A stretch of 64,000 nt of DNA from a virus (IMGVR_UViG_3300032007_000058:1-64000); one strand, 5' to 3'; positions 5,401-33,187 are shown, counted from the first letter of the stretch. Program-made: numbers and translations. The notes: generated by a model not told the origin, from the sequence alone.

Positions 5401-5667
5401 AAATGCGGCGCGGGAAAGCGGGTGATGGTCACCACTTCCGACTACGCCCCCGTGGGGGCGACCGTGAAGGTGTACGTGGAGACGGCCTCCGGCGTCTGGA
5501 CCGAGGCGGCGGCCTCCACGTCGGAGCCCATCGGCGACGGGTGGTATCGGGACGTGCGCTTCGTCCCGTGCGATCTGGCGCAGACGAGGCTGAAGATCGA
5601 GCTGACGGGCGGCCCCGGCGCGAGGCCGATGGTGACGGACATCAGCGCCGTCGTCCTGCCCGCGTGA
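2488..5667 (+). CDS. Large tail/baseplate structural protein (DUF4815-like)
   Basis: 1059 aa, RBS GGAGG; FQGAEINEIQ, LARYDRDSNSHYVVEG, FVDPLFDDDMRD, DPLAQTF, GVLLSSSNANTW motifs recalled from DUF4815 proteins. Confidence 0.75.
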   Translation: MTSEELKSLVGHPDFYDRWAKEDLWDFLAIISGRAFQGAEINEIQHVLDEKISALGRTLYADGTVIEGCDIAIDPDAGVADLGAGKVALDGKIRGVEAARLNIPGGDARVGIWLKARVITEKEDGSFLSPAVGMGEYRKPGAYRIVVTAEWGLDGEGLTAPFYAIYRITNWQVSNQYYGENTPEWLDALARYDRDSNSHYVVEGLRVTALPNADSADDGVKQTYSISEGLAHVRGYEARLSHAVRLVVEEDADLYQVQSEAHQYDSTGGQAVIPVHQTPIEAIASVRVTKERTVELTHGSYTGCSDDLPDTSVIKIVSVVQGGTTYTDGTDFQRNANRVDWSLMGAEPAPGSRYTVVYHYRTNVTPDASDATSLTLSGLVEGSLVELDYTYRMPRRDKIVIYKDSTVALVKGVPHRYAPVLPATPSDALCLAEVEQGWVGLPKVSNVAVQAVRMDDLNEMQEGIRALYRNVASLKMQMDASFSAPTSADNVFVDPLFDDDMRDAGTPQTAMIAGQALQLPMEIAFQTLETGRDLALAASPVPLIVQEQHTKCMKVNPYLAFDPMPVQVGLTPAVDRWTDTARAREIINAAELDALQARAAALRKANSGWTLGLVTVGQGTVLTEDAEGTLRQIDVALSAAGFGPGEGPIALTFDGLQIPYIGEDHADAGGKWTCTFTIPAGVPTGSRLVHVEGPHSQGDAIFVGIRNISTAVTRLRYSVFRATPVDPLAQTFMLNEDRHVAGVDFWLCQNGVSRLRVEIRETDLGFPTQDVVAQCVLDPADLNAGTWNRAIFETPALLTAGTMYAITLLSDTSDHEVGITELGDYDTETGWVRSQAYQTGVLLSSSNANTWTAHQSADLAFRLLGADFHEHRQAVELGTLDLTGMTDILAMAEVETTSAATGVTFVLRKEGAEVARMQAWQGMSFAEPLDGAHTLEAELFGDAKYSPILGRDPQVMLGKVGTFGDYVSRAFKCGAGKRVMVTTSDYAPVGATVKVYVETASGVWTEAAASTSEPIGDGWYRDVRFVPCDLAQTRLKIELTGGPGARPMVTDISAVVLPA

Positions 5668-5697
5668 CGTGCGCCCGATGGAAGGAGATGATGGAGG

Positions 5698-7476
5698 ATG
5701 GCCGATGTGACCGCGACGCCGGGGATGGACCCGGCCCCCGCGCCCCTGGTGGACGACCGGACCGCGCGGGGCTGGCCCCTGCCGCACCGGCGTAACAAGA
5801 TCGCCACGGACAACGAGCGCCTGCGCGCGGCCCTGTCCAGCATCGACACGGAGCTGACGGCGGCTGATACCTTCGCCGCCGCCACGGACAGGGAGCTGGC
5901 GCGGTACGAGGAGGCGACGGACGCCACCCTGGACCAGCACCGCACGGAGCTGGACGCCCTGGACCGCGACAAGGCGAACGAGGCGTCGGTGTCCCAGCGC
6001 TTCGAGACCCTGGGCGCGTCGGTCCAGTTCAGCTTCGACACGCTGCTCCACGACGACCTGCATGAGATCGACACCGGCACCTACCGCCACCTGACGCAGG
6101 CGCAGCAGGCGGCGCTCCCGGCGGGGCTGTCGGCCAGCAACCGGTTCGTGGCCGAGGCCCGCGTCATCGCGGAGGTGGACCTGGGCGCGGCGGCCCGGAC
6201 GGCATCGGCCCGCATCCCGGACGGCATCGGCCTCTGGGCCAGCGTGAAGGGCCTGGGCATCTTCCGGCTGGACCGGGCGTCGGTGGAGCCCCCGGACGGG
6301 GAGACATCGATCCTCCCCCAGACGGGGGCGGGCCGCTGGCTCCTCCAGGCCCCGGCCCCGGAGGAGGCCGTGGCGATGGCCGAGGACCTGCTGGTGGACA
6401 CCGTATGGCTGGGCCCCACCTCGACGAGCACGACATCCATATCCGCACATCTTACGGCCAATAGGTCATACGTCATCGGCGCGGAGGGCTGGCGGCTGCT
6501 GGGCGTGACGCCGCCGGCGGGGCTGCCGCTCCACTGGACCCACGCGGTGGACGGGACCAGCGTGACGATAACGTTCTACAACGACACGGACGCGCAGATA
6601 TCGCTGCCCGCGCAGACCTTCGGGTTCACCCTCCTGGTCCCCACGCCCGTGACGGCCCGTGGGCGGCGGGTCATGAACTGGCTCCTGCGGGCGCGCCCGT
6701 CCGGGGCGGAGGTGGACGGGACGATGGCGGGCCTCCCCGAGGCGCGGGAGGCCCTGGAGGAGATCGGCGGGAGCGCGAAGATGACGGCCCGCCTCCTGGG
6801 GGACGGGGCGGCGCTGGCCGCCGTGGGGGGATCGCGGGCGGCGACGGCGGCCCTGTTCTCCGGGAAGGCCGCGCAGGGCGCGCTCATAGCGGGGCTCGGC
6901 GCGAACGCGGCCAACGCCCCCGGCACGCTCTACGTCCAGCTCGCGTCCCATCGTCCCGCGATGGAGGGCATCTTCTGGGACCACCACGGCCTCGCCGCGC
7001 GGATCTGGGGCGTGAATGGCACGAATACCTGGATGGCCGAGGGCCTGGGGCTCGACGTGATGTTCCGGGATACCTGGTGCGCGTCGAACTTCCAAGTGAT
7101 ACATGGCGCGCAGCGCTACGGCCAAAACAAAGAACTGGTGGCGGTCTTGATCTCCATGGGCTGGACGCGGCAGGAGCACATCGTCCAGGACCTGGAAAAC
7201 GCCGGCGGTCAGATCGCGCCGAGCCTCCGCGAGGCCGAGGGCGTGCTCTTCATCTGGGTCGGGGGGCGGGGCTCGTCCGTGAACATGAACGTGAAGAACG
7301 GCAACGGGGTGGCTGTGTTCACGGCCAGCGTGGGCGCGGTCGCGTCAGCGTCGTGGGCGGTCCAAGAGAACAGCGGAAATTATATGCCGAGCATCATCAT
7401 CCACCCGTCCGTGCCGCTGTCCCTGTCCACGCACGGGAGCTGGGTGGCGGACCTCTGGGTCCCGCCGGCGCTGTAG
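5698..7476 (+). CDS. Tail fibre / receptor-binding protein
   Basis: 592 aa after the baseplate genes; N-terminal TARGWPLPH docking motif plus coiled coil; followed by a DUF4376 gene. Confidence 0.65.
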   Translation: MADVTATPGMDPAPAPLVDDRTARGWPLPHRRNKIATDNERLRAALSSIDTELTAADTFAAATDRELARYEEATDATLDQHRTELDALDRDKANEASVSQRFETLGASVQFSFDTLLHDDLHEIDTGTYRHLTQAQQAALPAGLSASNRFVAEARVIAEVDLGAAARTASARIPDGIGLWASVKGLGIFRLDRASVEPPDGETSILPQTGAGRWLLQAPAPEEAVAMAEDLLVDTVWLGPTSTSTTSISAHLTANRSYVIGAEGWRLLGVTPPAGLPLHWTHAVDGTSVTITFYNDTDAQISLPAQTFGFTLLVPTPVTARGRRVMNWLLRARPSGAEVDGTMAGLPEAREALEEIGGSAKMTARLLGDGAALAAVGGSRAATAALFSGKAAQGALIAGLGANAANAPGTLYVQLASHRPAMEGIFWDHHGLAARIWGVNGTNTWMAEGLGLDVMFRDTWCASNFQVIHGAQRYGQNKELVAVLISMGWTRQEHIVQDLENAGGQIAPSLREAEGVLFIWVGGRGSSVNMNVKNGNGVAVFTASVGAVASASWAVQENSGNYMPSIIIHPSVPLSLSTHGSWVADLWVPPAL

Positions 7477-10288: not shown

Positions 10289-10611
10289 TGCTGGTTTTGG
10301 TGTGTGCGTTTTTTTGTGGTGTGGTCCATGAGTTGGGACATTATTTGGCGGCGCTTTACTTCGGTAAAGTTTTAAGATTCCGCTTTAGTTTCGGGCGGTT
10401 CTATGTCCCGCGATATATTTGGAACATGCCCCAGATGGAGAGATGGAAGCAGCGGGTCGTTGCGGTGTCGGGGTTCGCGACGGAGGGCTTCGTAGCTGGG
10501 GCGCTGTGTGGTGGTGGCTGGCCCTGGATGGCCGGGGCCTTCGTGGTGCATCTGGCGGCGTATCCGTTCTACGCGGGTACGGCGTCCGATTTCAAATGGT
10601 TCAAGGAGTGA
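10285..10611 (+). CDS. Small membrane protein with HEXXH motif (M50-like)
   Basis: Hydrophobic segments; VHELGHY motif. Confidence 0.55.
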   Translation: MMLVLVCAFFCGVVHELGHYLAALYFGKVLRFRFSFGRFYVPRYIWNMPQMERWKQRVVAVSGFATEGFVAGALCGGGWPWMAGAFVVHLAAYPFYAGTASDFKWFKE

Positions 10612-11390
10612 TGATCATGTGGGAGAAATTGAAGGAGATCAAGAAATGGGTCGTGGAGAAGGTGCTCTGGGTCGAACGCGAGCTGAAGGGCAAAAGCGGC
10701 GCGGAGAAACGGGAGGTCGTCGTGAGAATGCTGAACGACATCATCGACCTGCCGTGGGTCCCGGAGTGGATTGAAGGGTATGCCATCGGGTGGCTGGTGG
10801 ACTTCGTATGCGACGCACTGAACCGCCTGCTGGGGCACGACTGGAGCGGCGCGACGCTGAACGAGGACAACGTTGAAAAACTGGCGGCGGCGCTGGACGC
10901 GCCGGTGTCGGCGGTGAGCGCCGTGGCGGAAAAGCAGGGACTGAGCGTGGACGAGCGCATCGAAGAGCTGTATAAGGAATACGTCCTGAAGAACGAGACG
11001 CCCCCGGCGGACGAGCAGCTCACGCCGCACTTCGCGAAGAGCGAATTTGCCTGCAAGTGCGGATGCGGGGAGTTTGACATGGACCCGGACATCGTGAAAA
11101 TGTGCGAGACCATACGGACGGAGCTGAACATGCCCGTGATGGTCAACAGCGGGAGGCGGTGCGTGAAGTACAACGCGAAGGTGAAGGGAGCGGCGAAGGA
11201 CAGCCAGCACACGAAGGGCAAGGCGGTGGACTTGAGCTGCGCGGTGGGGCCGAAGAAGCTCTATGAGACCATTAAGCGGCTTTACGACGAGGGGAAGCTG
11301 CCGGGGCTGGAATATTGCTTGAGGTATCCCACGTTCGTACACATCGACGTGGGGCCGGCGCGCAAGCAGCGGTTCGCCGTAAGGGGGTAG
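10611..11390 (+). CDS. Endolysin, peptidase M15 (Zn D-Ala-D-Ala peptidase) with helical N-terminal extension
   Basis: TPHFAKSEFACKCGCG, VNSGRRC, SQHTKGKAVD, FVHIDV; RBS AAGGAG; start 10611 or 10617. Confidence 0.9.
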   Translation: MIMWEKLKEIKKWVVEKVLWVERELKGKSGAEKREVVVRMLNDIIDLPWVPEWIEGYAIGWLVDFVCDALNRLLGHDWSGATLNEDNVEKLAAALDAPVSAVSAVAEKQGLSVDERIEELYKEYVLKNETPPADEQLTPHFAKSEFACKCGCGEFDMDPDIVKMCETIRTELNMPVMVNSGRRCVKYNAKVKGAAKDSQHTKGKAVDLSCAVGPKKLYETIKRLYDEGKLPGLEYCLRYPTFVHIDVGPARKQRFAVRG

Positions 11391-11394
11391 CGCC

Positions 11395-11787
11395 ATGCAG
11401 AGGGGAGAGGTGATCCAAATGCAAGAGGAAACGCGGACCTTCCTCCAGGTCCTCAGTATCGCGGGGCTTGGAGGCGGGATCAATTACATCCGTCATCATC
11501 GGAGCGGGGGCTTCCGCGCGTTGGAGCTAGCCGCCAGTATCGCCGTCTCCGCCTTCGCAGGGATGGAGGCCCATTTCCTAGTCCGGTGGATGGGCCTGAG
11601 CGTGGATCTCCAGTTTGCTATCGCCGGGATCGCGGGGTACGGCGGCGGCGTGCTGCTCGATACCGCCGTGAACATCGCCCACCAGATCATGCACGCCCGC
11701 GCTGGGACGAAGGCGGGCGAGACTGGAAAGACGCAGGGCTCGACGGATATCCTGGGGACGCAGCCGGATGCGAAAGAAAAGAAGTAG
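11395..11787 (+). CDS. Holin (LydA-like)
   Basis: Directly after the endolysin; three hydrophobic segments, LGGGINYI, AIAGIAGYGG; two possible starts (11395/11419). Confidence 0.75.
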   Translation: MQRGEVIQMQEETRTFLQVLSIAGLGGGINYIRHHRSGGFRALELAASIAVSAFAGMEAHFLVRWMGLSVDLQFAIAGIAGYGGGVLLDTAVNIAHQIMHARAGTKAGETGKTQGSTDILGTQPDAKEKK

Positions 11788-11825
11788 TTATCGCTTGCAT
11801 TTTGTAAGCCTGTCACCTTCCTACG

Positions 11826-11853
11826 CGGGGCCCTTCGGGGCCCCGTTTTTTTT
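11826..11853 (+). terminator. Rho-independent terminator of the late operon
   Basis: CGGGGCCC-TTCG-GGGCCCCG followed by T8. Confidence 0.9.
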
Positions 11854-11968
11854 GTACTTGAAAGCTACTATACAAGCCGTCCATCTTCCGTTATTTAGGT
11901 ATAAATACCTATAGTAATTATATTTATAATGAAGTATGATTAAACCATCAAGAAAGGAGGTGAGGACG

Positions 11969-12154
11969 GTGGACGAGGAAACAAGGCAGCTCATCCGAGA
12001 CCTGAACGGGCTCCTCTAGACCCTGATAGCAAGCCTAGCACTCTACTTCAGCTACCAGGCCTACCGAAAAAGGCCCAAGGCCCCGGATGAGCGGAAACGG
12101 AAGCGCCCCAAACGGGGCAGGCGGCGCAAGCGCCGAAACAGGCGCAAGCGCTAA
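11969..12154 (+). pseudogene. Small membrane protein with Arg/Lys-rich tail, interrupted by in-frame TAG (12017-12019)
   Basis: Strong RBS AAGGAGGTG; VDEETRQLIRDLNGLL*TLIASLALYFSYQAYRKRPK...RRKRRNRRKR. Confidence 0.55.
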
Positions 12155-12215
12155 GACCGAGGGGGGAGGTCGGATCTCCCCCCTACTTCCAAATTTTACC
12201 ACGTCCACCGTTAGG

Positions 12216-12383
12216 ATGGGAAAGTTCCAGAAGGCTTTTTTAGTGTTGGCCCCGGCGTTGTTGGCAGCTTCCACGCCGCTCTATGACTGGGACAGGGAGG
12301 CGCTCTCCTTCGTGCTGTTCGGCGTCGCCCTGGGGGCTTGGGGGGCCGCCCTAGCGGCCTGGCTAGGCACGCGGGGACGGTGA
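12216..12383 (+). CDS. Small two-TM membrane protein
   Basis: 55 aa, two hydrophobic stretches; weak RBS. Confidence 0.4.
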   Translation: MGKFQKAFLVLAPALLAASTPLYDWDREALSFVLFGVALGAWGAALAAWLGTRGR

Positions 12384-12388
12384 GCGGG

Positions 12389-12667
12389 ATGGACGTCGAG
12401 GATTTCGTCTCGGTGGCGGAGGCAGTGGAGATATCCGGATACGATCGGATGCACATCGCCCTCCTCTGCCGCCAGGGCAGGCTTCCCGGCGCGCGAAAGA
12501 TGGGGAGCCAGTGGATCATCCCGCGCAAGGCGCTCCAAGAGTACATGCCCGCGCCGCCCGGTCCCAGGCCGGGCTCGAAGCGGGTGAAGGAGGATCCCCT
12601 GGAGGCGGAGCTGAAGGAGGCCATCGCCAGGGGGAAAGCGAGAAAAGAGAGAGGCGACGGGGGATAG
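12389..12667 (+). CDS. Excisionase-type HTH (HTH_17) DNA-binding protein
   Basis: FVSVAEAVEISGY...LCRQGRLPGARKMGSQWIIP. Confidence 0.85.
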   Translation: MDVEDFVSVAEAVEISGYDRMHIALLCRQGRLPGARKMGSQWIIPRKALQEYMPAPPGPRPGSKRVKEDPLEAELKEAIARGKARKERGDGG

Positions 12668-12686
12668 CCCCCGCCGCCTCTTTTTT
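12651..12686 (+). terminator. Probable Rho-independent terminator
   Basis: GAGGCGACGGGGG/CCCCCGCCGCCTC imperfect stem plus T6. Confidence 0.65.
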
Positions 12687-12771
12687 GCGCCCTTGCGCCC
12701 CTCCACACCGGGCCCCCAAAAATATAATAAGATCATACTGCGAGGATACCAATAAGAAACGGAGGGTCGGT

Positions 12772-13500
12772 ATGAGTTTCACGAAGATGCTCTGCGAGGC
12801 GCTGGACATCCCGAGGCCGGAGGAGAAGCTGAAGCCCATCGAGCATGGCGGGCGATGCGGGATGTGCGGCGGGGAAGAGGGGCCGTTCTATCGCGGCCAG
12901 GACCTATGCAGCAATAGCAACGCCGTCTTCCTAGAGGTCTTCCACGGCGCGGACTGCCCTGTGTGCGTTTATTGCGCCTCGCTGTTCAAGGCGCAAAATC
13001 CCAAGCTCTGCAATACGGGGAGCAAGGCTATGTGCGTCATCGACGGGGTAGGGGGGCTCCCTGTCATCGCCAGGGACAGCGCGGAGAAGTTCGATAGGCC
13101 CTGCTGGACGGACCTAGTTAAGGCGGTGAGGATCGGTGCCCCCTGCGTAATAATCCTCTCCACCAATACAAAGAAACGCGTCTGGCCGATAGCGAAAAGC
13201 GGCTTCATCGGCGAGAACACGCCAGTGACGCTGAGCGACAACGAGCTGGACCTTAACACGACCATCTATATCGACTGGGGCGAGATGCTTAAGGACCTTG
13301 CGTATGTCGAAAGCCTAATGACGGCGGGGCTGGCGAAGGGGATGCTGTTTAGCTCCCTGCTGAAGGGCTTGCCGCCCGAGGGTTGGACGGCGGAAGATAT
13401 TATCGAGGCCGAGATGAAGATGTCCATCATACGCACGAAGAAGCACGCCCCATTCGTTCAACTTATCGCACAGAAAGCGAAGGAGGAAGCGCTATCATGA
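12772..13500 (+). CDS. csf1: Type IV CRISPR-associated Csf1 (Cas8-like, Zn-finger)
   Basis: CGMC...CVYC zinc motif, P...ILSTNTKKRVW motif, position directly before csf2/csf3-like RAMPs. Confidence 0.72.
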   Translation: MSFTKMLCEALDIPRPEEKLKPIEHGGRCGMCGGEEGPFYRGQDLCSNSNAVFLEVFHGADCPVCVYCASLFKAQNPKLCNTGSKAMCVIDGVGGLPVIARDSAEKFDRPCWTDLVKAVRIGAPCVIILSTNTKKRVWPIAKSGFIGENTPVTLSDNELDLNTTIYIDWGEMLKDLAYVESLMTAGLAKGMLFSSLLKGLPPEGWTAEDIIEAEMKMSIIRTKKHAPFVQLIAQKAKEEALS

Positions 13501-14930
13501 GATTTGAGGCGAAGCCGAACGTCATCGAGATGATCCTGACCGCCCAGAGCCCCATCATCCACGGGGACCCCGCTGTGACGCGGGACACGAATATCACCAC
13601 GTTCAACCGCCAGAAGCAGATCCTTCCGCTTGCGCCTGTATTCTCCGGGAACGGGGACGATGAGCGGCTACTGAAGGCTATCGCTGAGGCCCACCCCGTC
13701 ACGCCGGGGCTGAAAAAGCTATTCTCCCAGTCCTCGACGGCGGAAGTAGTCTCCGTGATCCTCATCCGGCTCTTTATCGAGATCTACAGCGGGAAGGGGC
13801 TCTTCGTCGATGCGGACCGGTACTCCATGCTGGAAGGGCGCGTGAAGGCCGTATCTATGAAGGCGGGCTCGCTCTCTACGTTCTGGGGCGGGCTCCTGGA
13901 CGCGATGGACGTAGACATCCAGCCGGGGGCCTACGATGCGATGCTGGCCGATATCTTCTCCCTGTCTCGAAAGCTCCAAGCCCTGGCGCTATCTATCTTG
14001 GTCGAGATCGGGGCCGTAGCGATCTTCAAGGCCCGCCTCTGGAATAACGCGCTACGGGACGCCAGGCGTGACGAGGAGCTTAAAGAGGGCGGTGCGAGCG
14101 AGGGATTGACCGAGACGCTGGACCTCTTGTCTATGCTGGATGATCCGGCGGATATCCAGCGCAAGGAAGCCGAGAGCTCTGTGGTCGAGGTCCCGACGGT
14201 CTCCCCCAACACCATCCGCAATCGTGTCATCCGCACGCCGGGATGGGAACACCTTTGCGCGGCGCTAGGGATCGACGCGATGCATCCGGGCGATGGGGAC
14301 CTGCCCATCGGGGTGGAGGCACTGTTCGTGAATGGCGGGAACATCGAGAGCGGCGGGAAGCAGCCGAACGCGCCTGAGGCTATGGCGAACGCCATCCGGC
14401 GGAAGTATCCGCTCGTGGACCTGCTGGGCGGGGTGATAAACTCCGTCATCCTGGGGCGCTCCTGCCTTTCGGTGAATTCGTGGCTGGTATGCAGGGAGAA
14501 TGCTTCCATCCTGGAACATACCAGCGCGGCGGGGCGAAGCAACCTCCGTATCAGCTCCTTCCAGATGGTGGACAGCGAGATGAAGATCAGGACGAAGACA
14601 TCGCGCGGCGTGGGGCAGTCCATGGCGAACGCGGAATCCCTGGCGATCGGGTCGGAGATCTTCGTGCGCCTGACACTGGCCCCGTTCACCCAGGATATCA
14701 CGAAGGGGGCGCTATTCGCGGCGCTGAGGACCTTCCAGGCCATGCCTCACGTCGGGGGGCATTCCAGCACTGGCGGCGGGCTGATGGATATGGATCTGAC
14801 GCGGGGGATGGAGGGAGAGGACGCCCTGCTCGCCCTTTATGAGGACTATCTGGAGGAGCATAAGGAGGAGCTGCGGCAGGGGCTCGTGACGGGCACCCTA
14901 GCGATCGGGGATAAGGCGCTGTGCGTGTGA
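13497..14930 (+). CDS. csf2: Type IV Cas7-like RAMP Csf2 with ~185 aa helical insertion
   Basis: LTAQSPIIHG, FNRQK, VPTVSPNTIRN, LFVNGGNI, YPLVDLLGG, E.LAIG and C-terminal Gly loop VGGHSSTGGG. Confidence 0.85.
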   Translation: MRFEAKPNVIEMILTAQSPIIHGDPAVTRDTNITTFNRQKQILPLAPVFSGNGDDERLLKAIAEAHPVTPGLKKLFSQSSTAEVVSVILIRLFIEIYSGKGLFVDADRYSMLEGRVKAVSMKAGSLSTFWGGLLDAMDVDIQPGAYDAMLADIFSLSRKLQALALSILVEIGAVAIFKARLWNNALRDARRDEELKEGGASEGLTETLDLLSMLDDPADIQRKEAESSVVEVPTVSPNTIRNRVIRTPGWEHLCAALGIDAMHPGDGDLPIGVEALFVNGGNIESGGKQPNAPEAMANAIRRKYPLVDLLGGVINSVILGRSCLSVNSWLVCRENASILEHTSAAGRSNLRISSFQMVDSEMKIRTKTSRGVGQSMANAESLAIGSEIFVRLTLAPFTQDITKGALFAALRTFQAMPHVGGHSSTGGGLMDMDLTRGMEGEDALLALYEDYLEEHKEELRQGLVTGTLAIGDKALCV

Positions 14931-14940
14931 GGTGAGGGGA

Positions 14941-15672
14941 ATGTATACTCCCGACCTGCTGAAGCCTTATGAGGAGAGATATCGGGGCATCGTTCCTCAG
15001 GGGATGAAGGTAGAGGCTGTCTTGGAGGACCGCTTCATCGCTACCGAGCCGGTGACGCTAGATGGGCTCCTGGCCTGGGCCGTGGTCCAGGAGGCGCAGA
15101 ATGAGGCCGGGGAGAGGATACCCTTTCAGGAGAGGGAGGATATCGCCTTCATGCCCCTGCCCCTCAAGATACTGTGGGCGGATGAGGCGGGCGGCCCGCT
15201 ATGGTGTGCGTCGTTCTTCCTCCCCGACGAGGTGGACTGTGACGTGGAATATATGCACAAGCGAGCGCCGGACGGGCATAGGACGAAGAGCAAGCATCCC
15301 GAGTCCTTCGGCGTGAAGGGCGTGACGGGGCGATGGGCGGAACGTCGGACGCCGTTCCCCGTCACTCTTGCCCGAAAGCTGGAAGCATGGTGCCTGGGGG
15401 ACGTCGCCGAGGTCCGGCGGCTCCTCCAGTACGTCACGCACGTAGGGAAGAAGACGGCGGCGGGGTTCGGTATCGTGCGGGAGTGGATCGTCGAGCCCGC
15501 CGATATCCAGGAACGGGACTGCCTCATCCGGGACGGGAAGCTGGTACGGAACGTCCCTGCGGGATATGGCGGCATCGAGACCGAGGCTCCAACAGAGCTG
15601 CTGGGCTGGGCCCCTCCGTATTGGGACCCGGCGTTCTATGGGGCTGGCTTCCGCTTCGGGGCGCGGATATGA
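14941..15672 (+). CDS. csf3: Type IV Cas5-like RAMP Csf3
   Basis: VTLDGLLAWA, LPL...WCAS, GDVAEVRRLL..VTHVGKKTAAGFGIVREWIVE. Confidence 0.88.
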   Translation: MYTPDLLKPYEERYRGIVPQGMKVEAVLEDRFIATEPVTLDGLLAWAVVQEAQNEAGERIPFQEREDIAFMPLPLKILWADEAGGPLWCASFFLPDEVDCDVEYMHKRAPDGHRTKSKHPESFGVKGVTGRWAERRTPFPVTLARKLEAWCLGDVAEVRRLLQYVTHVGKKTAAGFGIVREWIVEPADIQERDCLIRDGKLVRNVPAGYGGIETEAPTELLGWAPPYWDPAFYGAGFRFGARI

Positions 15673-15721
15673 GAGCGTTACAAAACTGCGCCATGGTACA
15701 AAAAAATAACATACATGCGGG

Positions 15722-16447
15722 GTGGTGATGGATATGATCGTGACAGGGAGCGCCCTACGCGATACGGAGACGAAGGCGAAGATCGCGGCAGAAGCGGCCT
15801 GTCTCCTACGGCCATCTGCCCCGGTCAGTCCCCTGGTCTGGGAGATCGGGGATACAGGGGCCTCAAAGGATGAGCCAAGGCATGTGGGCGTATTGCCGCC
15901 GGAGCGCCACGAGGGGGCGGCGCAGATGCTCCGGCAGATGGGATTCGTCTGGACCGTCTCTATATGGGCGAAGAAGTGTACGGATGAAACGGTGGACGAC
16001 CTGATCGTCGAGGTGGCTGTGGGTCTTTTGGCGCTGGGGCTGGTTGTGCGCGTCCCCCGCCCTGAGCTCGTCGAGCGTGTCGTGTCCGGGGACTACGAGC
16101 CCGTCTGTATGCGGCACGTGAAGGTCTTGTCTGGGGGACGAAGGTTTATCTTGACTTGGCCCAGTGAGAAAGATAACGGCCTCTACGACGCGCTTAAGCG
16201 CGTGCCCGGCGCGAGATGGGACCGGGCGCTTCGGGGCGTGACCTTACCGAAGGAGATGTATAACGAGATGCTGGACTTCGCCGAGGCTAACGGATTCCAG
16301 ATCTCGGAGGAGGCGCAGCGCTTGGCCGCCGAAGCGGAGGCCGTGTATAAGGCTACCGTCATCGTGGACGTGCAGCCCCGCGAGCTTGAGCCACCGGCCA
16401 GGCGGGGGATAGGAGAGATCGATGCGGAGCTTCGCGACGACGACTGA
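15722..16447 (+). CDS. Hypothetical protein with C-terminal HARP-like domain
   Basis: LYDALKRVPGARWD...VTLP...MLDFAEANGF; overlaps the SNF2 gene start. Confidence 0.55.
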   Translation: MVMDMIVTGSALRDTETKAKIAAEAACLLRPSAPVSPLVWEIGDTGASKDEPRHVGVLPPERHEGAAQMLRQMGFVWTVSIWAKKCTDETVDDLIVEVAVGLLALGLVVRVPRPELVERVVSGDYEPVCMRHVKVLSGGRRFILTWPSEKDNGLYDALKRVPGARWDRALRGVTLPKEMYNEMLDFAEANGFQISEEAQRLAAEAEAVYKATVIVDVQPRELEPPARRGIGEIDAELRDDD

Positions 16448-17882
16448 ATTGCTCCCGCATCAGGTGGAGGCGGTGGCGAAGCTCCTTCCATCGCGGGTCG
16501 GAGCGCTCTTTATGGAGATGGGGACGGGGAAGAGCAGGACTGCTATAGAGCTGGTCCGCCTGCGGGCGCGAAAGGTGGACCGGGTGCTCTGGTTCTGCCC
16601 CGTGTCTTTGAAGGAGACCGTAAGGCACGAAATCTTAAAACATACGGATTGTGCCCCGGAGGATGTCTGCGTTTTTGGGGATAAGACGGACGAGCGTACC
16701 GTGCCGAAGGGCCCCCTCTGGTACGTCATCGGGCTGGAAAGCGTGTCGCAGAGCAGGCGGGTGGCCTTGACGGCGGCGCGGCTGGCGACGAAAGATTCTT
16801 TCGCCATCGTGGACGAATCCAGCTATATCAAAGGGCATGAAGCACTGCGCACGCGGCGGCTCATCGTCTTCTGCGAGAAATGCCGCTATCGCATGATCTT
16901 GACGGGGACGCCCATGACACAGGGAGTACCTGACCTGTTCAGCCAGATGTATTTTCTCTCGCCAAAGATCCTTGGCTATCGGTCGTGGTATACCTTCGAG
17001 GCCAATCACCTGGAGTACGACAAGCGCCGAAAGGGGCTGCTCATCCGGGCGCATGACACGCAGGGATTAGCGGAGAAGATGCAGCCCTACGTCTTTCAGG
17101 TCACGAAGGGCGAATGTCTATCATTACCGGAGAAGCTATACGACCGCTATTATTTTGAGTTGACTCCTGAGCAGGAAAGGGCCTATGCCCAGGCAAAGAG
17201 CGATTTCGCGGACGCTCTGGCTGACGAAGGCGGCGATAGCTTTAGCTCCCTCCCGTTCTTTTATCTTTTTACGTCGTTGCAGTCCATCGTGTGCGGCTTC
17301 TGGCGCTATCGCCCCGAATGGTGGCGCAGGGACAAGGAATGGCCGATGCAGGTGGAGACCTTACCACACCGACGTATCGAGTGCATGATGGACGTGATCG
17401 GACGTATCCCCTCCAGCGAAAAGGTCATCATCTGGGCGAAGTACCGGCATTGCGTAGAGGAGATCGTAAAGAGCCTGAATACCGCATTTGGAGCGGATGC
17501 GGTGGCGCAGTTCCACGGCGGGATCCTGAGGCGGGGACGGGAGGCGGAGCTAGAGAAGTTTCGCACGTCGGCGCGGTTCCTCGTAGCGACGCAGTCCTGC
17601 GGCGGGCATGGGCTGACCTTGAACGAGGCTTCATATGTGATCTTCTATGCGGATGGATTTAAGTATTCCGAACGCCTCCAGGCGGAAGACCGCTGTCACC
17701 GTATCGGGCAGAGCCGCCCCGTCACCTATATCACGCTCTCCAGCAATGCGGGCATCGAGAACAGGATAGCTCAGGCCATCGCGAACAAGTCCGACGTCCT
17801 GCGGGACTTTAAGGCAGAGATCGATAAGGTCAAGGAGGAGGGGATAAGGGACCGGGCGAGAAAGATGGTGATGGAGCTATGA
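16422..17882 (+). CDS. SNF2/SWI2-family helicase
   Basis: LLPHQ, MEMGTGKS (Walker A), IVDESS (DExx), LTGTP, GGHGLTL, QAEDRCHRIGQ. Confidence 0.93.
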   Translation: MRSFATTTELLPHQVEAVAKLLPSRVGALFMEMGTGKSRTAIELVRLRARKVDRVLWFCPVSLKETVRHEILKHTDCAPEDVCVFGDKTDERTVPKGPLWYVIGLESVSQSRRVALTAARLATKDSFAIVDESSYIKGHEALRTRRLIVFCEKCRYRMILTGTPMTQGVPDLFSQMYFLSPKILGYRSWYTFEANHLEYDKRRKGLLIRAHDTQGLAEKMQPYVFQVTKGECLSLPEKLYDRYYFELTPEQERAYAQAKSDFADALADEGGDSFSSLPFFYLFTSLQSIVCGFWRYRPEWWRRDKEWPMQVETLPHRRIECMMDVIGRIPSSEKVIIWAKYRHCVEEIVKSLNTAFGADAVAQFHGGILRRGREAELEKFRTSARFLVATQSCGGHGLTLNEASYVIFYADGFKYSERLQAEDRCHRIGQSRPVTYITLSSNAGIENRIAQAIANKSDVLRDFKAEIDKVKEEGIRDRARKMVMEL

Positions 17883-19042
17883 GCGTCAAGAAGTACCTGA
17901 ACATCGACGTCTACGAGGCATTCCAGCGGCGGATGGACTTCATCTTTTCGGAGTTCGAGAATGTGACTATCTCTTTCAGCGGGGGCAAGGATTCTGGGCT
18001 GCTCCTTCACCTTGTGATGGATTTCGTGCGGACACATGGGATCACGAGGCGCGTAGGGCTATTCCATCAGGACATGGAGGCGCAGTATCAGTGTACGACG
18101 GATTTTGTCACGGACATGTTCGAGATGTACGCCGATAGTATGGAGCCTTATTGGTGGTGTATCCCCATAGCGTCGCGAACGGCTGTAGGGCAATATGAGA
18201 TGTTCTGGTATCCATGGGACGAGACCAAGCCTGAAGCGTGGATTCGTCCCCGCCCAGATCATCCTTATATTTATACGCTAGAGAACAACCCTATGGGGAG
18301 CTTCTATCGTTATCGAATGGAATATAAAGCCCATATGAAAGCGTTCACGCGCTGGTATTGTCATGCGCATGGAGGGGGACGGACAATAGCGCTCATGGGG
18401 ATGAGAGCAGACGAATCTTTGCGCCGATATCAGAGCATCGTGAACAAGCGTTCCGACTATAAGGGTAAAAAATGGATCACGCAAGAGCATGAGAACAGTT
18501 ATAGCTCATCGCCGCTCTATGACTGGACGACAGAAGATATCTGGCACGCCCATGCAGTGAAGGGATACACATATAATCGCGTCTACGACCTGTTTTATTT
18601 AGCTGGCTTGACTATCCATGATATGCGGGTAGCCAGTCCGTTCCACGAAGCTGCTACAGCGAGCCTTCATCTTTACAAGGTGCTAGAGCCTGAAACATGG
18701 ACGAAACTGCTTTGCCGCGTTTCAGGAGCAAATTTTGCAGCCCTCTATGGGAAGAGCTATGCGATGGGGTATCGCGGGCTCTCCTTACCCGAAGGATATA
18801 CGTGGGAGTCCTACGTCGCTTTTCTGTTAGCCTCCTTGCCGGAATATATGCGCAAGAATTATATTGAGCGTTTTGCGAAACTCGATATGGATGAGCCGCC
18901 ATGGCGCGAGATGGCTATCTGTATCCTGAAGAACGATCATCTTTGCCGTAATCTCAACGGCGCTAAGAAAAGAGCAGAGGCGCGCGTAAAACAGAAGGCA
19001 GAATGGCGAGAAGGTATATTCTCAAAATACGCTGACCTTTAA
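17879..19042 (+). CDS. ibrA: PAPS-reductase-like / DUF3440 protein (IbrA family)
   Basis: PP-loop SFSGGKDSG, MGMRADES, PLYDWTTEDIW, MRVASPF, RVSGANF, CILKND. Confidence 0.88.
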   Translation: MSVKKYLNIDVYEAFQRRMDFIFSEFENVTISFSGGKDSGLLLHLVMDFVRTHGITRRVGLFHQDMEAQYQCTTDFVTDMFEMYADSMEPYWWCIPIASRTAVGQYEMFWYPWDETKPEAWIRPRPDHPYIYTLENNPMGSFYRYRMEYKAHMKAFTRWYCHAHGGGRTIALMGMRADESLRRYQSIVNKRSDYKGKKWITQEHENSYSSSPLYDWTTEDIWHAHAVKGYTYNRVYDLFYLAGLTIHDMRVASPFHEAATASLHLYKVLEPETWTKLLCRVSGANFAALYGKSYAMGYRGLSLPEGYTWESYVAFLLASLPEYMRKNYIERFAKLDMDEPPWREMAICILKNDHLCRNLNGAKKRAEARVKQKAEWREGIFSKYADL

Positions 19043-19054
19043 GGAGATGATGTC

Positions 19055-19468
19055 ATGGATATCGTGATATACGAGAAGCGGTCACCTGAATTTTGGAGCT
19101 TGATGGGGCCGTTCTTCGCATCGCGGAAAGTCCGGCGCGATATATCCTCGATGTACGATGATGAGCGGTATGTTTGGATATTGGCTGTTGAAGATGGAAA
19201 GGTGTTAGGGTTCGTTGCGGTCCGCCCTTCAAGATCTAGCGCTCTATTATCGAGCCTTTACGTCAGAGAAGATAGTAGAGGAAAGGGGATTGCTCGTGCG
19301 TTGGTCTCTGCACATTTGGCATATTGCAGGGAACATAAGCTCTGGAAGGTATGCGTCACGGCTGCCCCATCATCGCGTGCGATCATGGAGAAGCATGGAT
19401 TTAGGGAGACGGGGGTACGAGGCAATAGCACGACGATGGAGGTCCATTTAGATGTCTACGGGCGCTGA
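19055..19468 (+). CDS. GNAT-family acetyltransferase
   Basis: LSSLYVREDSRGKGIARALV acetyl-CoA motif A; EKHGF. Confidence 0.85.
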   Translation: MDIVIYEKRSPEFWSLMGPFFASRKVRRDISSMYDDERYVWILAVEDGKVLGFVAVRPSRSSALLSSLYVREDSRGKGIARALVSAHLAYCREHKLWKVCVTAAPSSRAIMEKHGFRETGVRGNSTTMEVHLDVYGR

Positions 19469-20087
19469 TATTATGGATATGGCACAGGCCTTCTGCGCCC
19501 AGATAGAAGCCCTCCCCATGAAGGAGAAGATAGAAGGGCTTAACCTCGTCCGCAAGATGCTCCACCAGGTGAGCCCCTTCCGGGACGAGCCTGTGGACTG
19601 CGTGCTCTGGGTATCGAGCGAGGCTGTGGAGGGCAACGAGTACAACCCAAATTCCGTTGCGCCGCCGGAGATGCGGCTCCTGGAACTCTCTATCCAGGAG
19701 GACGGGTATACCCAGCCCGTGGTGACGAATCCCGAAGGGGAAAGCCTCTGGCGCGTAGTGGACGGCTTCCACAGGACGCGCGTCGCGAAGGAGAGCGCCG
19801 CCGTGCGGGAGCGTATCTTCGGTTATATCCCCGTCGTGGAGATACGGGCGGGGCGCGACGGGAAGCGGGACCGGATGGCCGCCACCATCCGCCACAACCG
19901 GGCGCGGGGCGTCCACGGCGTGGAGCGGATGTCGGACATCGTGGCGGAGCTCCATGGCCTGGGCTGGACGGACGCGGAGATCGCGAAGGAGCTGGGCATG
20001 GACGCGGATGAGGTCCTGCGCCTGAAACAGATCACCGGCCTGGCGGAGCTCTTTAGATCGGGCGGGTATTCGCGGGCGTGGGAATAA
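19452..20087 (+). CDS. ibrB: ParB/Srx-like protein (IbrB family)
   Basis: NEYNPNSVAPPEM, GYTQPVV, VVDGFHR, ATIRHNRARG, LGMDADEVLRLKQITGLAELF. Confidence 0.9.
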   Translation: MSTGADIMDMAQAFCAQIEALPMKEKIEGLNLVRKMLHQVSPFRDEPVDCVLWVSSEAVEGNEYNPNSVAPPEMRLLELSIQEDGYTQPVVTNPEGESLWRVVDGFHRTRVAKESAAVRERIFGYIPVVEIRAGRDGKRDRMAATIRHNRARGVHGVERMSDIVAELHGLGWTDAEIAKELGMDADEVLRLKQITGLAELFRSGGYSRAWE

Positions 20088-20102
20088 GGAGATAGGATCG
20101 AC

Positions 20103-20139
20103 GGGGGATAGCTCACGAAGAGCTATCCCCCGCTTTTTT
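20103..20139 (+). terminator. Terminator ending the csf-ibr operon
   Basis: GGGGGATAGCTC-ACGAA-GAGCTATCCCCC plus T6. Confidence 0.85.
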
Positions 20140-20157
20140 GTGCCTGGATATAGGGCA

Positions 20158-20442
20158 TCACTCGTCGCTCATTCCCTCTTTCATGGGTATGACCTCAAGA
20201 GGCCGATTCTTCCTTGGCCTCCTGACTGCGGCACAAGCAACGCGGATATCGTCAAATGGGACTTTGTAAAGTTTCGCCAGGTCCTCTGCGATACCCAACG
20301 GCAATTCAGCTTGACCAAGCTCATATCGCCTGAGCGTATCCGGGGCGACCCCTAGCGCCACAGCAGCTTGCGGTCGCGTCAGCCCCGCATCCGAACGCAA
20401 GGCCCCTAAAGGAGTTCGGTCTGCATTGCTCCATCGTGGCAT
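20158..20442 (-). CDS. XRE-family HTH regulator
   Basis: LRSDAGLTRPQAAVALGVAPDTLRRYELG; RBS GGAGG. Confidence 0.85.
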   Translation of the reverse strand: MPRWSNADRTPLGALRSDAGLTRPQAAVALGVAPDTLRRYELGQAELPLGIAEDLAKLYKVPFDDIRVACAAVRRPRKNRPLEVIPMKEGMSDE

Positions 20443-20483
20443 CTTCTTCACCTCCTGGATATATTATATACTATTTTTCACGT

Positions 20484-20541
20484 CTTAAAAACAAGGCCTT
20501 AATAATAAGTATATTTACTGATGTAAGGCCTTATTTTTAAG
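20484..20541. promoter_or_regulatory. 18-bp inverted-repeat operator pair in an AT-rich divergent promoter region
   Basis: CTTAAAAACAAGGCCTTA ... TAAGGCCTTATTTTTAAG (one mismatch, 22 nt apart). Confidence 0.65.
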
Positions 20542-20743
20542 GTATCATATAACCATCGAGCGAGGGAGATACTAAGAGCCCAAGCAGAGCAGATTGAAAA
20601 AATAAGCCCAGGCCTCGGGCAGACAAAGAGGTCCCCAGAAGCAGAGCGGGAGGGAAGAGCGCGAGATCGCCAAGAGGCCCGGAGAACGCCAAGAAGCGGA
20701 CGGAGGAGCAGGCAGACCTCTCAACGGTCGGCACTCGGGGACA

Positions 20744-20800
20744 GGTCGAAACCGGCGGTGACAGAGCCGGTCCAAGGGTAAAACCCTTGCTGATGAGACC
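20744..20800 (+). ncRNA. Type II hammerhead ribozyme
   Basis: GGTC-GAAA-CCGGC(loop)GCCGG-TC^-CAAGGGT(AAA)ACCCTTG-CTGATGA-GACC: all core nucleotides and three stems present; predicted cleavage after C20772. Confidence 0.9.
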
Positions 20801-20817
20801 AAAAGGAGGAGATCAAG

Positions 20818-21090
20818 ATGTTGCAGTTCGTAGAGTTTGAGGGAATTGACCACGCCAACATCGAGCTTTTCGACATCGCGGAGGAGGCCGGATGCACCGA
20901 GGCCATGGACCTCCTGCACGACGCCCACAAGTGGGCGAAGAGCAAGGAGGAGGCCTACGAGATGGTAAGGAAGGCCTTTTACGTCCTGCGCCTGGAGCAC
21001 GAGGACGTAATGAAGGAGAAGTTCGGGAAGAAGGTGTTCCCGGAATATACGGCCCTTTGCAAGACGAGGAAGGGGAGGAAGGGGGCGTAA
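20818..21090 (+). CDS. Early hypothetical protein (90 aa)
   Basis: RBS AGGAGG immediately after the hammerhead. Confidence 0.75.
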   Translation: MLQFVEFEGIDHANIELFDIAEEAGCTEAMDLLHDAHKWAKSKEEAYEMVRKAFYVLRLEHEDVMKEKFGKKVFPEYTALCKTRKGRKGA

Positions 21091-21129
21091 GCCCCCCCCT
21101 CCCCCCCACCATATCAGGAGGATAGCAAA

Positions 21130-21417
21130 ATGAAAAATATCACTCGGAAAGAACTTTTTAAGATGGGCATCAGGGCACTGGTAGAAAAAGAGCCGGAATG
21201 GATCTTCTACGGGATCCCGGACCTGCGAGAGGTCCTGAGCTATGCGGGAATCGAGGGTGCTGAGTTCGACGCCCTCATCAAAGCCGCCAGGGATAGCGAT
21301 AAGATCCAGCTCCACATAGGAGACGTGAGGTATATGACCCTAGACCAGGCACGAGCCCGTTTCACCGATGAAAACGGGTTTACCTTTGGGACCTTTACGA
21401 TAAGGAGGGGCTTATAA
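21130..21417 (+). CDS. Early hypothetical protein
   Basis: RBS AGGAGG; translationally coupled to the next ORF. Confidence 0.7.
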   Translation: MKNITRKELFKMGIRALVEKEPEWIFYGIPDLREVLSYAGIEGAEFDALIKAARDSDKIQLHIGDVRYMTLDQARARFTDENGFTFGTFTIRRGL

Positions 21418-21764
21418 TGGAGGGGACGAACTGGGCGGGCGTCATCGATCAGAACTGGGACGCGGCGCTGGCCGCGATGGTGAGGGCCGGATACGATTCA
21501 GCGGCCCTTGACGAGGATAGCGTCCTCACGGTGGAGATGGGGACCGACGGCGCGGTATCCCTGCGACGGGACAGGGTCGGGACTATCAGCCCCGAAGCGA
21601 AGGCCGGGGAGGCGCTGATCCTCTGGACGTACTGCACGGGGGATCGCTGGCACGGGGGCTATGACCCCGACCAGTACGCAAAGGTGGGGGCGGAGAAAGA
21701 TCTCTGGCTCCGCCTGCACCAGACCAACGGATACAGGCTCCCGGCGAGGCCCCGCCCCTGGTGA
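21417..21764 (+). CDS. Early hypothetical protein
   Basis: TAATG overlap with the previous gene. Confidence 0.65.
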   Translation: MEGTNWAGVIDQNWDAALAAMVRAGYDSAALDEDSVLTVEMGTDGAVSLRRDRVGTISPEAKAGEALILWTYCTGDRWHGGYDPDQYAKVGAEKDLWLRLHQTNGYRLPARPRPW

Positions 21765-31954: not shown

Positions 31955-33187
31955 TTATTTTTTATCCAGCCGCTCCACCGCTCGGAGCTTGGCCTCTGGG
32001 GCCAGGTGGGCGTAGCGGAGGGTCATCTTCATATCCGCGTGCCCCAGGAGCTCACGGACGGTGTTCAGGTCCACGCCCGCCATGACCAGTCGCGACGCGA
32101 AGTCGTGGCGCATGTCGTGCCAGCGGAAATCTTCTATCCCCGCCCTCTTTATTAGCCCGTCCCAAGCGCTGCGACAGCCCCCCATCGGGCCGTCTCCCTG
32201 TGGAGAGGGGAAGACCGGGGCGTCCCCTTCCCCTTTCGTCTGGGCTCGCCACTTATCGAGCACCTCCTGGGCGGTCTTGTTGAGGGGGATCCGTATGGTC
32301 TTCCCGCTCTTCGAGGACGCCGCGCGGACGGTCAGCACTCCGTCCTGGATGTCACTCCAGCGCAGGGCCAGGAGCGAGCCGCGCCGGATGCCCGTGTTGA
32401 GGGAGAGGAGCACCATCGGCTTCAGGTGGTCGGCGAAGTCTTCCTTATCTATATGGGGGAGAGGATCCATGTGCCGCGCCTTGAGCCATTCGTTGTATCG
32501 TTCCCTGGCGGCGCGGAGCTCGGCCTCGCGCTCCTCCATCGCCTCGAATAGACGTTCCCTCTCATCGTCGGAGAGATAGCGGACGCGGCTGTCCGATTCG
32601 TCCCGTAGCGTCTCCAATCTCCCTAGTGGATAGGTATCGATGATCTCCCGCTTGTAAGCCCAATTCAGGGCGGCTTTCAGGGCCGTGACCTTCCTATTTA
32701 TAGTGGATGTCATCAACCCCCGCTTCCGGGCCGCCGTTCTCCAGGCCTCGACGTCGTGGAGAGAGAGCGTATCGAGGTCACGGTCCAACAGGGGGGCGAA
32801 GGCCGATCGGAGGAGGGCGAGCGTTTCGCCGCCGCTGCGGCGGTTCTCCAGCACCCACGGGCCATAGACGTTATCGAGGAAGGCCCCGAAGGACATCCGC
32901 TCTGGGCGCGACTCCTTCTGCCAGGGCTCCTCTCCCTTGGCGAGCGCGGTGAGGAACTCTGTCGCCGCCAGCCGGGCGTCCGGCAATGAGATTAGGTCAG
33001 CGTCCCCGATCTTATAGTGAGATGACTTTCCAGAGGCTTTCCTGTAAAATACATACCACGTCTTCTTGCCCTTCGCGCCGACGTAGAGCTGGAAGCCCCG
33101 TGTCTGGGCATCGGACCACCACGTCCCCTTGTCCCCATCGGGCTTGACGGAGAGCAGGAAGGACTGTGTGAATCGTACCTTTGGCAT
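31955..33187 (-). CDS. int: Tyrosine integrase with N-terminal arm-binding domain
   Basis: TGIRRG, SKSGK, WHDMRHDFASRL, LLGHADMKMTLRY catalytic residues. Confidence 0.97.
   Translation of the reverse strand: MPKVRFTQSFLLSVKPDGDKGTWWSDAQTRGFQLYVGAKGKKTWYVFYRKASGKSSHYKIGDADLISLPDARLAATEFLTALAKGEEPWQKESRPERMSFGAFLDNVYGPWVLENRRSGGETLALLRSAFAPLLDRDLDTLSLHDVEAWRTAARKRGLMTSTINRKVTALKAALNWAYKREIIDTYPLGRLETLRDESDSRVRYLSDDERERLFEAMEEREAELRAARERYNEWLKARHMDPLPHIDKEDFADHLKPMVLLSLNTGIRRGSLLALRWSDIQDGVLTVRAASSKSGKTIRIPLNKTAQEVLDKWRAQTKGEGDAPVFPSPQGDGPMGGCRSAWDGLIKRAGIEDFRWHDMRHDFASRLVMAGVDLNTVRELLGHADMKMTLRYAHLAPEAKLRAVERLDKK

Follow-up and report, generated by a model that had tools for sequence, protein, structure and literature searches.

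A phage-borne Csf module of the type IV-B lineage shares an operon with an SNF2-IbrA-GNAT-IbrB cassette

Does a type IV-B Csf complex, a CRISPR-Cas assembly to which the 2025 classification assigns no function established by experiment (PMC12669027), act together with the enzymes encoded beside it? The question is raised by a locus in the virus sequence IMGVR_UViG_3300032007_000058, of which we analysed bases 1-64000 (the whole stretch of 64,000 nucleotides (nt), hereafter the window); the source is a linear, 85,940-bp IMG/VR virus record. At 12772-20087, eight plus-strand genes encode Csf1, Csf2 and Csf3, followed by a protein called p4 here, an SNF2 helicase/translocase core, IbrA, a GNAT acyltransferase and IbrB. 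A preliminary description had interpreted this arrangement as a Cascade-like complex coupled to a remodelling and nucleic-acid-modification machine; the observation itself is confirmed, and the interpretation is partly supported. The first three genes form a genuine phage-borne, array-less and nuclease-less Csf effector of the type IV-B lineage, and the operon is a composite of this Csf module and an enzyme cassette. With middling confidence, we lean to a reading in which the modifying enzymes that act with the Csf complex are exchangeable, the IbrA cassette standing in here for a lost CysH-like enzyme.

The identification of the first three genes as csf1, csf2 and csf3 is upheld by a type IV profile search for Csf3 and by fold matches for Csf1 and Csf2. 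Csf3, a Cas5 protein encoded from 14932 or 14941 to 15672, matches TIGR03116 at an E-value of 1.3e-20 over 201 of 223 positions; as the score of 74 bits lies below the 140-bit equivalog cut-off, its sequence identifies it as a type IV Cas5 by homology, short of equivalog status. The Csf3 proteins of relatives match PF27782 (Csf3), and a phmmer comparison with Csf3 in the Protein Data Bank (PDB; 7xfz_B) gave E 0.0066. Translation of csf3 probably begins with the ATG at 14941, which follows a GAGGGG ribosome-binding site. Csf2, a Cas7 protein (13497..14930, 477 amino acids (aa)), is weakly matched by sequence (NCBIfam TIGR03115, E 0.0022; family profile against the Csf2 of 7JHY, E 0.0023). Its AlphaFold model, built from a 19-sequence alignment with a predicted local distance difference test score (pLDDT) of 76, reached Z 19.6 against the type IV-A1 Csf2 8rfj_D and 17.6 against the type IV-B Csf2 7jhy_a (root mean square deviation 2.9 Å over 221 residues), compared with only ~13 for type III Csm3; the Foldseek E-value was 2.5e-6. 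The expected repeat-associated mysterious protein (RAMP) fold is thereby recovered, and the model identifies the protein as a type IV Cas7 of the RAMP class.

For Csf1 (12772..13500, 242 aa), a Cas8-like large subunit, sequence searches were null, with no match of profiles against the PDB and a non-significant NCBIfam TIGR03114 match (E 0.064), and the assignment therefore rests on fold. The AlphaFold2 (AF2) model (pLDDT 87, predicted template modelling score 0.84) retrieved with Foldseek only 8rc3_G and 7xg1_A (E 2-4e-6) and 8rc2_G, which aligned over ~200 residues at Z 11.3 (8rc3_G), 10.9 (7xg1_A) and 8.2 (8rc2_G), the next match standing at 3.4. These are ~240-aa type IV-A chains that we take as Csf1 by exclusion, as they are neither Csf2 nor Csf3; weak lower matches of the model fall on C-terminal regions of Cas10/Cmr2. 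The N-terminus of the window protein carries a Cys-rich, zinc-finger-like cluster, which fits the N-terminal zinc-finger domain described for Cas8/Csf1 (PMC11519345). Judged by its predicted fold, csf1 encodes a type IV large subunit.

Csf2 owes its length to an all-helical insert of ~170 residues (residues ~55-225, window 13660-14170). A profile search of 1.84 billion representatives found ~125 full-length members of this long form, the nearest relatives of which are ordinary Csf2 proteins of ~280 aa without the insert. No open reading frame (ORF) that could be a separate cas11 lies between csf1 and csf2, which overlap by 4 nt. The helical insert, which the family profile matches weakly to the Cas11 of 7JHY (E 0.21), probably takes the place of Cas11.

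The absence of cas1, cas2, cas6, dinG and an array, first noted for the window, extends to the whole 85.9-kb record, where we found no CRISPR-like repeats, no match to Cas1, Cas2, Cas6_C or DEAD_2/DinG at E<=1, and nothing resembling the Cas6 proteins that relatives encode. Given that CheckV puts the record at 72% completeness, these absences are not final. In lacking an array, Cas6, DinG, RecD and adaptation genes the module agrees with type IV-B, though an SNF2 helicase is present. It departs from that subtype in its enzyme partner: a tblastn search of the record with three CysH-like CasCysH proteins returned only IbrA and chance-level matches, and IbrA is the sole gene of the PAPS (3'-phosphoadenosine-5'-phosphosulfate)-reductase family in the record. 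Among the weak matches, the L002 CysH-like protein aligned to 37760-38071 on the plus strand (E 0.001, 21% identity), where there is no long ORF; this match is probably due to chance.

How unusual this loss is emerges from a survey of the Csf family, in which 75 loci fell into 38 clusters at 90% Csf2 identity and the gene after csf2 could be read in 34. The usual order is csf1-csf2-cysH-csf3, and in 31 of the 34 clusters csf2 is followed by CasCysH, a CysH-like PAPS-reductase protein of ~250 aa. One cluster (L018/L034/L060) has an N6_N4 DNA methylase instead (L018:11401-12126, E 9e-18), another a B12-binding radical SAM enzyme with a methylase after csf3 (L048:2586-3845 and 4676-5848), and in the window alone the slot is empty, only 1 nt separating csf2 from csf3. 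In L013, a relative with 83% identity, cysH still comes directly after csf2, so that the deletion in the window is recent; in the 65%-identical L002, CasCysH also follows csf2. In further loci the position holds a second gene, encoding a GT2 glycosyltransferase (L020:3497-4171), a GT25-like glycosyltransferase (L027:12430-13053), a methylase-like protein (L006), a 235-aa protein of no assigned family (L063) or IbrA together with IbrB (L024). From these gene orders, the csf2-csf3 gap is an enzyme slot that is normally filled by CasCysH, which is sometimes joined or replaced. IbrA should not be taken for the CysH-like hallmark protein of type IV-B, as relatives carry a separate CasCysH, missing with no substitute in the slot from the window phage alone.

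The survey also qualifies the array-less and Cas6-less character of the module, which stands for the window phage and fails as a family trait. Genes for Cas6 (PF01881) or a Cas6e-like protein (PF08798) lie beside csf at L002:13034-13777 and at L006:4854-5522 and 13877-14449, and L007, listed with L006, likewise encodes Cas6; being array-less and Cas6-less is therefore no fixed property of the family. A search extending 10 kb from the csf genes found no CRISPR-like repeats in L002, L005, L006 and L007. Two features of single relatives may be recorded here. In three loci (L020:477-1412, L022:5751-6659 and L023:6832-7749) the csf1 frame is extended upstream through a helix-turn-helix (HTH)-like N-terminus, which may mean either that Csf1 is fused to an HTH part or that a regulator gene overlaps csf1. 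An AcrVA2-like gene (PF26125; L079:2252-3217) adjoins a short-form csf2-csf3 pair on a metagenomic contig of 4 kb.

The co-occurrence of csf and ibr genes in other genomes, on which the proposed coupling depends, was indeed observed. IbrA-IbrB is linked to the Csf family in four independent clusters and in four arrangements: downstream of csf on the same strand in the window; immediately upstream of csf, with a GNAT gene, in L006/L007; embedded as csf1-csf2-cysH-ibrA-ibrB-csf3 with overlapping genes in L024; and convergent with csf, 0.8 kb downstream, in L067. Linkage in 4 of ~34 clusters far exceeds the 0.44% frequency of IbrA in cultured phages (223 of 50,697 records by tblastn), a background that perhaps does not represent the accessory regions of these phages. 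Moreover, the sole locus with an empty slot is the one that has IbrA, the only PAPS-reductase-family enzyme of its record, nearby.

The single-operon description proved correct, the eight genes being tightly packed up to the terminator, with junctions that overlap or span at most 12 nt except for the 49-55 nt before p4. Besides the csf1/csf2 and csf2/csf3 junctions given above, p4 and SNF2 overlap by 26 nt, SNF2 and ibrA by 4 nt, and the GNAT gene and ibrB by 17 nt, and ibrA is separated from the GNAT gene by 12 nt. The AT-rich interval between csf3 and p4 is the sole real gap of the operon, and an internal promoter ahead of p4 is possible. An intrinsic terminator at 20102..20132 on the plus strand, with a 13-bp stem containing 9 GC pairs and a following T-run, closes the operon and is the sole strong plus-strand terminator past 12681. 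On the upstream side, a GC-rich hairpin with T-runs on both strands (12650..12681; seen in the terminator scan and in the sequence) closes the preceding unit, and an AT-rich, promoter-like stretch (12700-12760) lies between it and csf1. The hairpin separates csf1 from a gene for a small DNA-binding protein of the HTH_17/excisionase type (12390..12667, plus strand; phrog_6401 1.5e-7, phrog_2655 4e-5), which may be a regulator and has a 50%-identical homologue adjoining the csf module of L002 (15554-15763).

The enzyme cassette is well defined at its core. The SNF2 protein (16422..17882, 486 aa) matches PF00176 (60.6 bits, 1.7e-16) and PF00271 (Helicase_C; 48.8 bits, 9.8e-13), both past the cut-offs, so that both lobes are represented; it also matches phrog_62 (5.3e-93) and has the Walker A motif GTGKS and the motif II DESS. 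IbrA (17879..19042) is a PP-loop protein of the ATP pyrophosphatase type with an intact SGGKDS motif, matching PF11922 (DUF3440, 1.2e-44) and PF01507 (PAPS_reduct, 2e-11), again past both cut-offs, and phrog_2302 (1.7e-88). Between ibrA and ibrB sits the GNAT gene (19055..19468; Acetyltransf_10, 1.5e-16), the product of which has the acyl-CoA motif RGKGIA and is nearly an orphan: a word-based search returned its own cluster only, and its match to the GNAT next to IbrA-IbrB in L006 is weak (27% identity, E 1e-6). IbrB (19452..20087) is a ParB/Srx-like protein with a DGFHR motif and an HTH-like C-terminal tail. Its Pfam match (ParB_N, E 0.0024) is under the cut-off, and it is assigned through phrog_2159 (5.9e-68) and through phage homologues, showing 41-54% identity to IbrB/ParB-like proteins of three cultured phages, with 54% to that of Clostridium phage phiCs5676-1.

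The protein encoded between csf3 and SNF2, p4 (15722/15728..16447), had been described as HARP-like, a label that our searches do not support. It matches no Pfam family at E<=0.1 and no NCBIfam entry, the HARP family PF07443 has no match in the record at E<=10, and the feature score of p4 to an Atlas cluster annotated as 'HARP domain-containing' was only 0.78, in the chance range. We prefer to see in it the N-terminal portion of a phage SNF2 helicase that has been split, belonging with the IbrA-IbrB cassette and not with csf, because phiCs5676-1 has a homologue (32% identity, E 4e-17) immediately upstream of helicase-IbrA-ParB and because the Atlas model of p4 resembles the N-terminal parts of long phage SNF2 proteins (template modelling score 0.42-0.47). 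The identity of p4 as a Cas6, which relatives have after csf3, was considered and rejected, as BLASTP against three Cas6 proteins found no similarity.

How the two modules might function together can be outlined. Two mobile modules would have been joined in an accessory slot of a temperate phage. Csf1, with its zinc finger, Csf2, with its helical insert, and Csf3 would be expected to assemble into a filament that is bound to RNA and resembles the solved type IV-B complex, serving as a nucleic-acid-binding platform for whichever enzyme occupies the slot. With CasCysH deleted, the downstream IbrA cassette, aided by IbrB, GNAT and SNF2, would provide the enzyme arm. The cassette resembles an ATP-driven nucleic-acid-modifying set, in which SNF2 could move along or open DNA, IbrA could activate a group by adenylation, the GNAT protein could transfer an acyl group, and IbrB, with its ParB/Srx and HTH parts, could bind DNA or a nucleotide. 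Physical or functional coupling of this kind would most likely have DNA as its substrate, and it might serve as a self-mark that counters restriction, or in a conflict with host or rival elements. The chemistry that we favour within such a coupling, modification of DNA or RNA by adenylation and then group transfer, is put forward only tentatively. We are just as hesitant about a more general proposal: type IV-B Csf complexes would be RNA-scaffolded delivery platforms for exchangeable writers (CasCysH, IbrA-IbrB, DNA methylases, glycosyltransferases and radical SAM enzymes), and SNF2-IbrA-GNAT-IbrB would here install a new, ATP-dependent and possibly acylated modification in DNA or RNA at sites picked by the Csf filament. 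If true, such a mark could shield phage DNA or reprogramme the host.

The main and serious rival to coupling is chance adjacency: two independent modules would have entered the same permissive post-lysis slot, their co-transcription being incidental. We regard this as a real possibility, if on the unlikely side, and the observations in its favour are also those that weigh against the coupling we prefer. Phages of Clostridium, Lactobacillus and Streptococcus carry the cassette in the same post-lysis slot and have no csf, and IbrA-IbrB occurs without csf in Gaia-type mycobacteriophages, in a different neighbourhood; conversely, most csf loci of the family have no IbrA-IbrB within 8-10 kb. Each module thus works on its own, and the two share a preference for one accessory region. 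IbrA-IbrB also comes and goes among near-identical phages, L067 having the pair at a place that is occupied by terminase and portal genes in its near-twins, L063 and L066; the pattern fits a mobile cassette in a hot spot no less well than selection for linkage. SNF2 and p4 adjoin csf in the window and in no other cluster, the AT-rich gap before p4 could house an internal promoter, IbrA is not an orthologous replacement of CasCysH because the two are only distantly related (E 2.7e-10 at best, more often 0.002-0.02), and the literature that we found reports no biochemical function for IbrA/IbrB or any type IV-B system. A complex prediction of Csf1 and Csf3 with IbrA scored 0.00, which we count neither for nor against binding. 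What chance adjacency accounts for poorly is the four independent linkages set against the rarity of IbrA in cultured phages, the embedding of IbrA-IbrB between cysH and csf3 in overlapping frames in L024, the presence of IbrA next door to the sole empty slot, and the repeated gain of modifying enzymes by an internal slot of an operon for one complex. The coupling interpretation thus stands in part: the recurrent IbrA-IbrB linkage supports it, whereas its remodelling component is unsupported, because p4-SNF2-IbrA-IbrB is found free-standing without csf and SNF2 lies near csf only in the window.

The same distribution bears on the suggestion that the split SNF2 protein is a helicase arm of the Csf complex, comparable to DinG in type IV-A or RecD in type IV-D, and that the complex silences targets with RNAs from a host array. 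Type IV lineages have recruited helicases repeatedly (PMC7038947), and SNF2 does lie downstream of csf3 in the same operon; but SNF2 and p4 stay with IbrA-IbrB in csf-less phages, SNF2 is beside csf in none of the other clusters, and the record has neither an array nor Cas6, which makes this account quite improbable. More improbable still is that deletion of an essential partner has turned the Csf module into a functionless, decaying remnant, although CasCysH is near-invariant both in type IV-B (PMC7038947) and in the surveyed family. All three csf genes are intact and retain every family-invariant residue, their translational coupling is preserved, and the dN/dS ratio of nonsynonymous to synonymous substitution in csf2 is 0.10 against the 83%-identical relative, compared with 0.08 between two cysH-bearing relatives. 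This ratio and the retained residues indicate, at the sequence level, that the csf genes are under purifying selection and are not decaying; L018 and L048 likewise persist without cysH. We give equally little credence to the idea that the Csf complex is a sponge for host CRISPR RNAs or other small RNAs, an anti-CRISPR decoy accompanied by an unrelated anti-restriction function of the IbrA cassette. This idea has been raised, though judged unlikely (PMC7038947), and the solved type IV-B complex binds heterogeneous RNA (PMC7937560); yet a decoy role leaves the repeated capture of modifying enzymes in the slot unexplained, and we found no direct evidence for it.

The phage is temperate and tailed, and the operon occupies an accessory slot between its lysis genes and its immunity switch. 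Genes for an endolysin (10419-11390) and a holin (11395-11787) lie upstream of the csf operon, a repressor-like HTH gene (20158-20451) follows on the minus strand with a divergent AT-rich promoter region downstream of it, and an integrase is encoded at 31955-33187. The host is probably a member of the Chloroflexota (Anaerolineae), given that relatives of the Csf genes occur, besides IMG/VR contigs, in Chloroflexota metagenome-assembled genomes (Anaerolineales, Bellilinea). Among cultured phages, neither megablast of the whole region nor tblastn of Csf2 gave a match; an IMG/VR scan with a single Csf3 protein found nothing, although alignment-based scans did recover relatives. A tblastx comparison of L002 with the phage genome gave mostly noise, with few common genes and no long synteny.

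Beyond the operon, a 766-aa protein (34770-37070) has up to five separate matches to phage HNH endonucleases (phrog_374, 1.3e-183), an unusual multi-HNH architecture. A 537-aa protein (54265-55878) has an N-terminal DNA-methyltransferase-like region (phrog_6263, 1.6e-22), which gives the phage one more candidate gene for DNA modification, located outside the operon. No transfer RNA genes were found, and no Rfam family matched the window at gathering thresholds; at E<=1 over 11700-21500, there were only chance-level matches to microRNA-type hairpins, with no hammerhead and no CRISPR repeat family. At 20744-20800 in the window, CUGAUGAG and GAAAC motifs are visible, marking a type II hammerhead candidate that is Rfam-negative at E<=1, a divergent hammerhead still being possible.

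Type IV-B systems, known from plasmids and prophages as well as from certain lytic phages and one archaeal virus, have no arrays and are linked to cysH (PMC7038947, PMC8175902, PMC10848311), and their near-invariant CysH-like partner has been called key to their function (PMC7038947, PMC8175902). A 2018 preprint (bioRxiv 10.1101/270033) pointed out N6-methylases and ADP-ribosyltransferases among the neighbours. Our literature search found no published link between type IV-B and IbrA-IbrB, no account of a variable enzyme slot between csf2 and csf3, and no cysH-less type IV-B module next to an IbrA cassette. The finding brings together type IV-B and the IbrA/IbrB cassette widespread in phages, both of them unexplained, and their recurrent pairing offers a testable clue to the role of type IV-B. 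The Csf family amounts to a set of natural swap experiments, in which the slot holds a methylase, glycosyltransferases, a radical SAM enzyme or IbrA-IbrB, or, in the window phage, is empty with the IbrA cassette downstream. These swaps suggest that the system's output is the modification of nucleic acids, and they name concrete proteins for joint testing.

Comparison with known systems places the locus between several of them. Dnd/Ssp phosphorothioation systems and Dpd systems, which modify DNA with 7-deazaguanine, combine a PP-loop enzyme of the PAPS-reductase family (DndC, SspD) with a ParB-like protein (DndB, DpdB), and Dpd also has SNF2-like helicases. The window likewise pairs a PP-loop enzyme with a ParB-like protein (compare PMC8175902, PMC12839542), and its SNF2 protein weakly matches DpdE and DrmD; however, it lacks a cysteine desulfurase, the DndC cysteine pair, a tRNA-guanine transglycosylase (TGT) and a restriction arm, and IbrA matches DndC only weakly (E 1e-4). 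As in types IV-A, with DinG, and IV-D, with RecD, a Csf effector is followed by a superfamily 2 helicase gene, and the Csf1 and Csf2 models match type IV-A structures best. Unlike in those subtypes, the helicase is an SNF2 protein that travels with IbrA-IbrB and not with csf, and Cas6 and an array are absent.

The enzyme cassette has its closest counterparts in Clostridium phage phiCs5676-1 (OR574845), Lactobacillus phage CR28 (OQ627802) and Streptococcus phage CHPC877 (MH937467), where the order (p4-like)-helicase-IbrA-IbrB follows the lysis genes ahead of the cro/antirepressor region. The window has the same gene order and post-lysis position, with 32-54% identity to phiCs5676-1; the free-standing cassettes differ in having no csf and no GNAT gene between ibrA and ibrB, and the p4-like protein of phiCs5676-1 is longer (389 aa). 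Mycobacteriophage Gaia has a helicase-annotated gene, then IbrA and a ParB-like gene, and a Microcystis phage has two ParB genes, then IbrA. In E. coli, IbrA and IbrB were named 'co-activators of prophage gene expression'.

The Csf module itself is nearest to type IV-B, exemplified by Mycobacterium sp. JS623 (PDB 7JHY), in which csf1-cas11-csf2-csf3 is accompanied by a cysH-like gene (PMC7937560, PMC8175902, PMC7038947). It differs from that arrangement in having neither CasCysH nor a separate cas11, in the helical insert of its Csf2, and in sharing an operon with a split SNF2, IbrA, GNAT and IbrB; and, unlike the type IV-B systems of actinobacterial plasmids, its family resides in tailed phages of Chloroflexota-type hosts. 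Nevertheless, the likeness is extensive: the module comprises Csf1, Csf2 and Csf3, dispenses with an array, Cas6, adaptation genes, a nuclease and a DinG/RecD helicase, and is borne by a mobile element, and the relatives of the locus carry the CasCysH signature of type IV-B.

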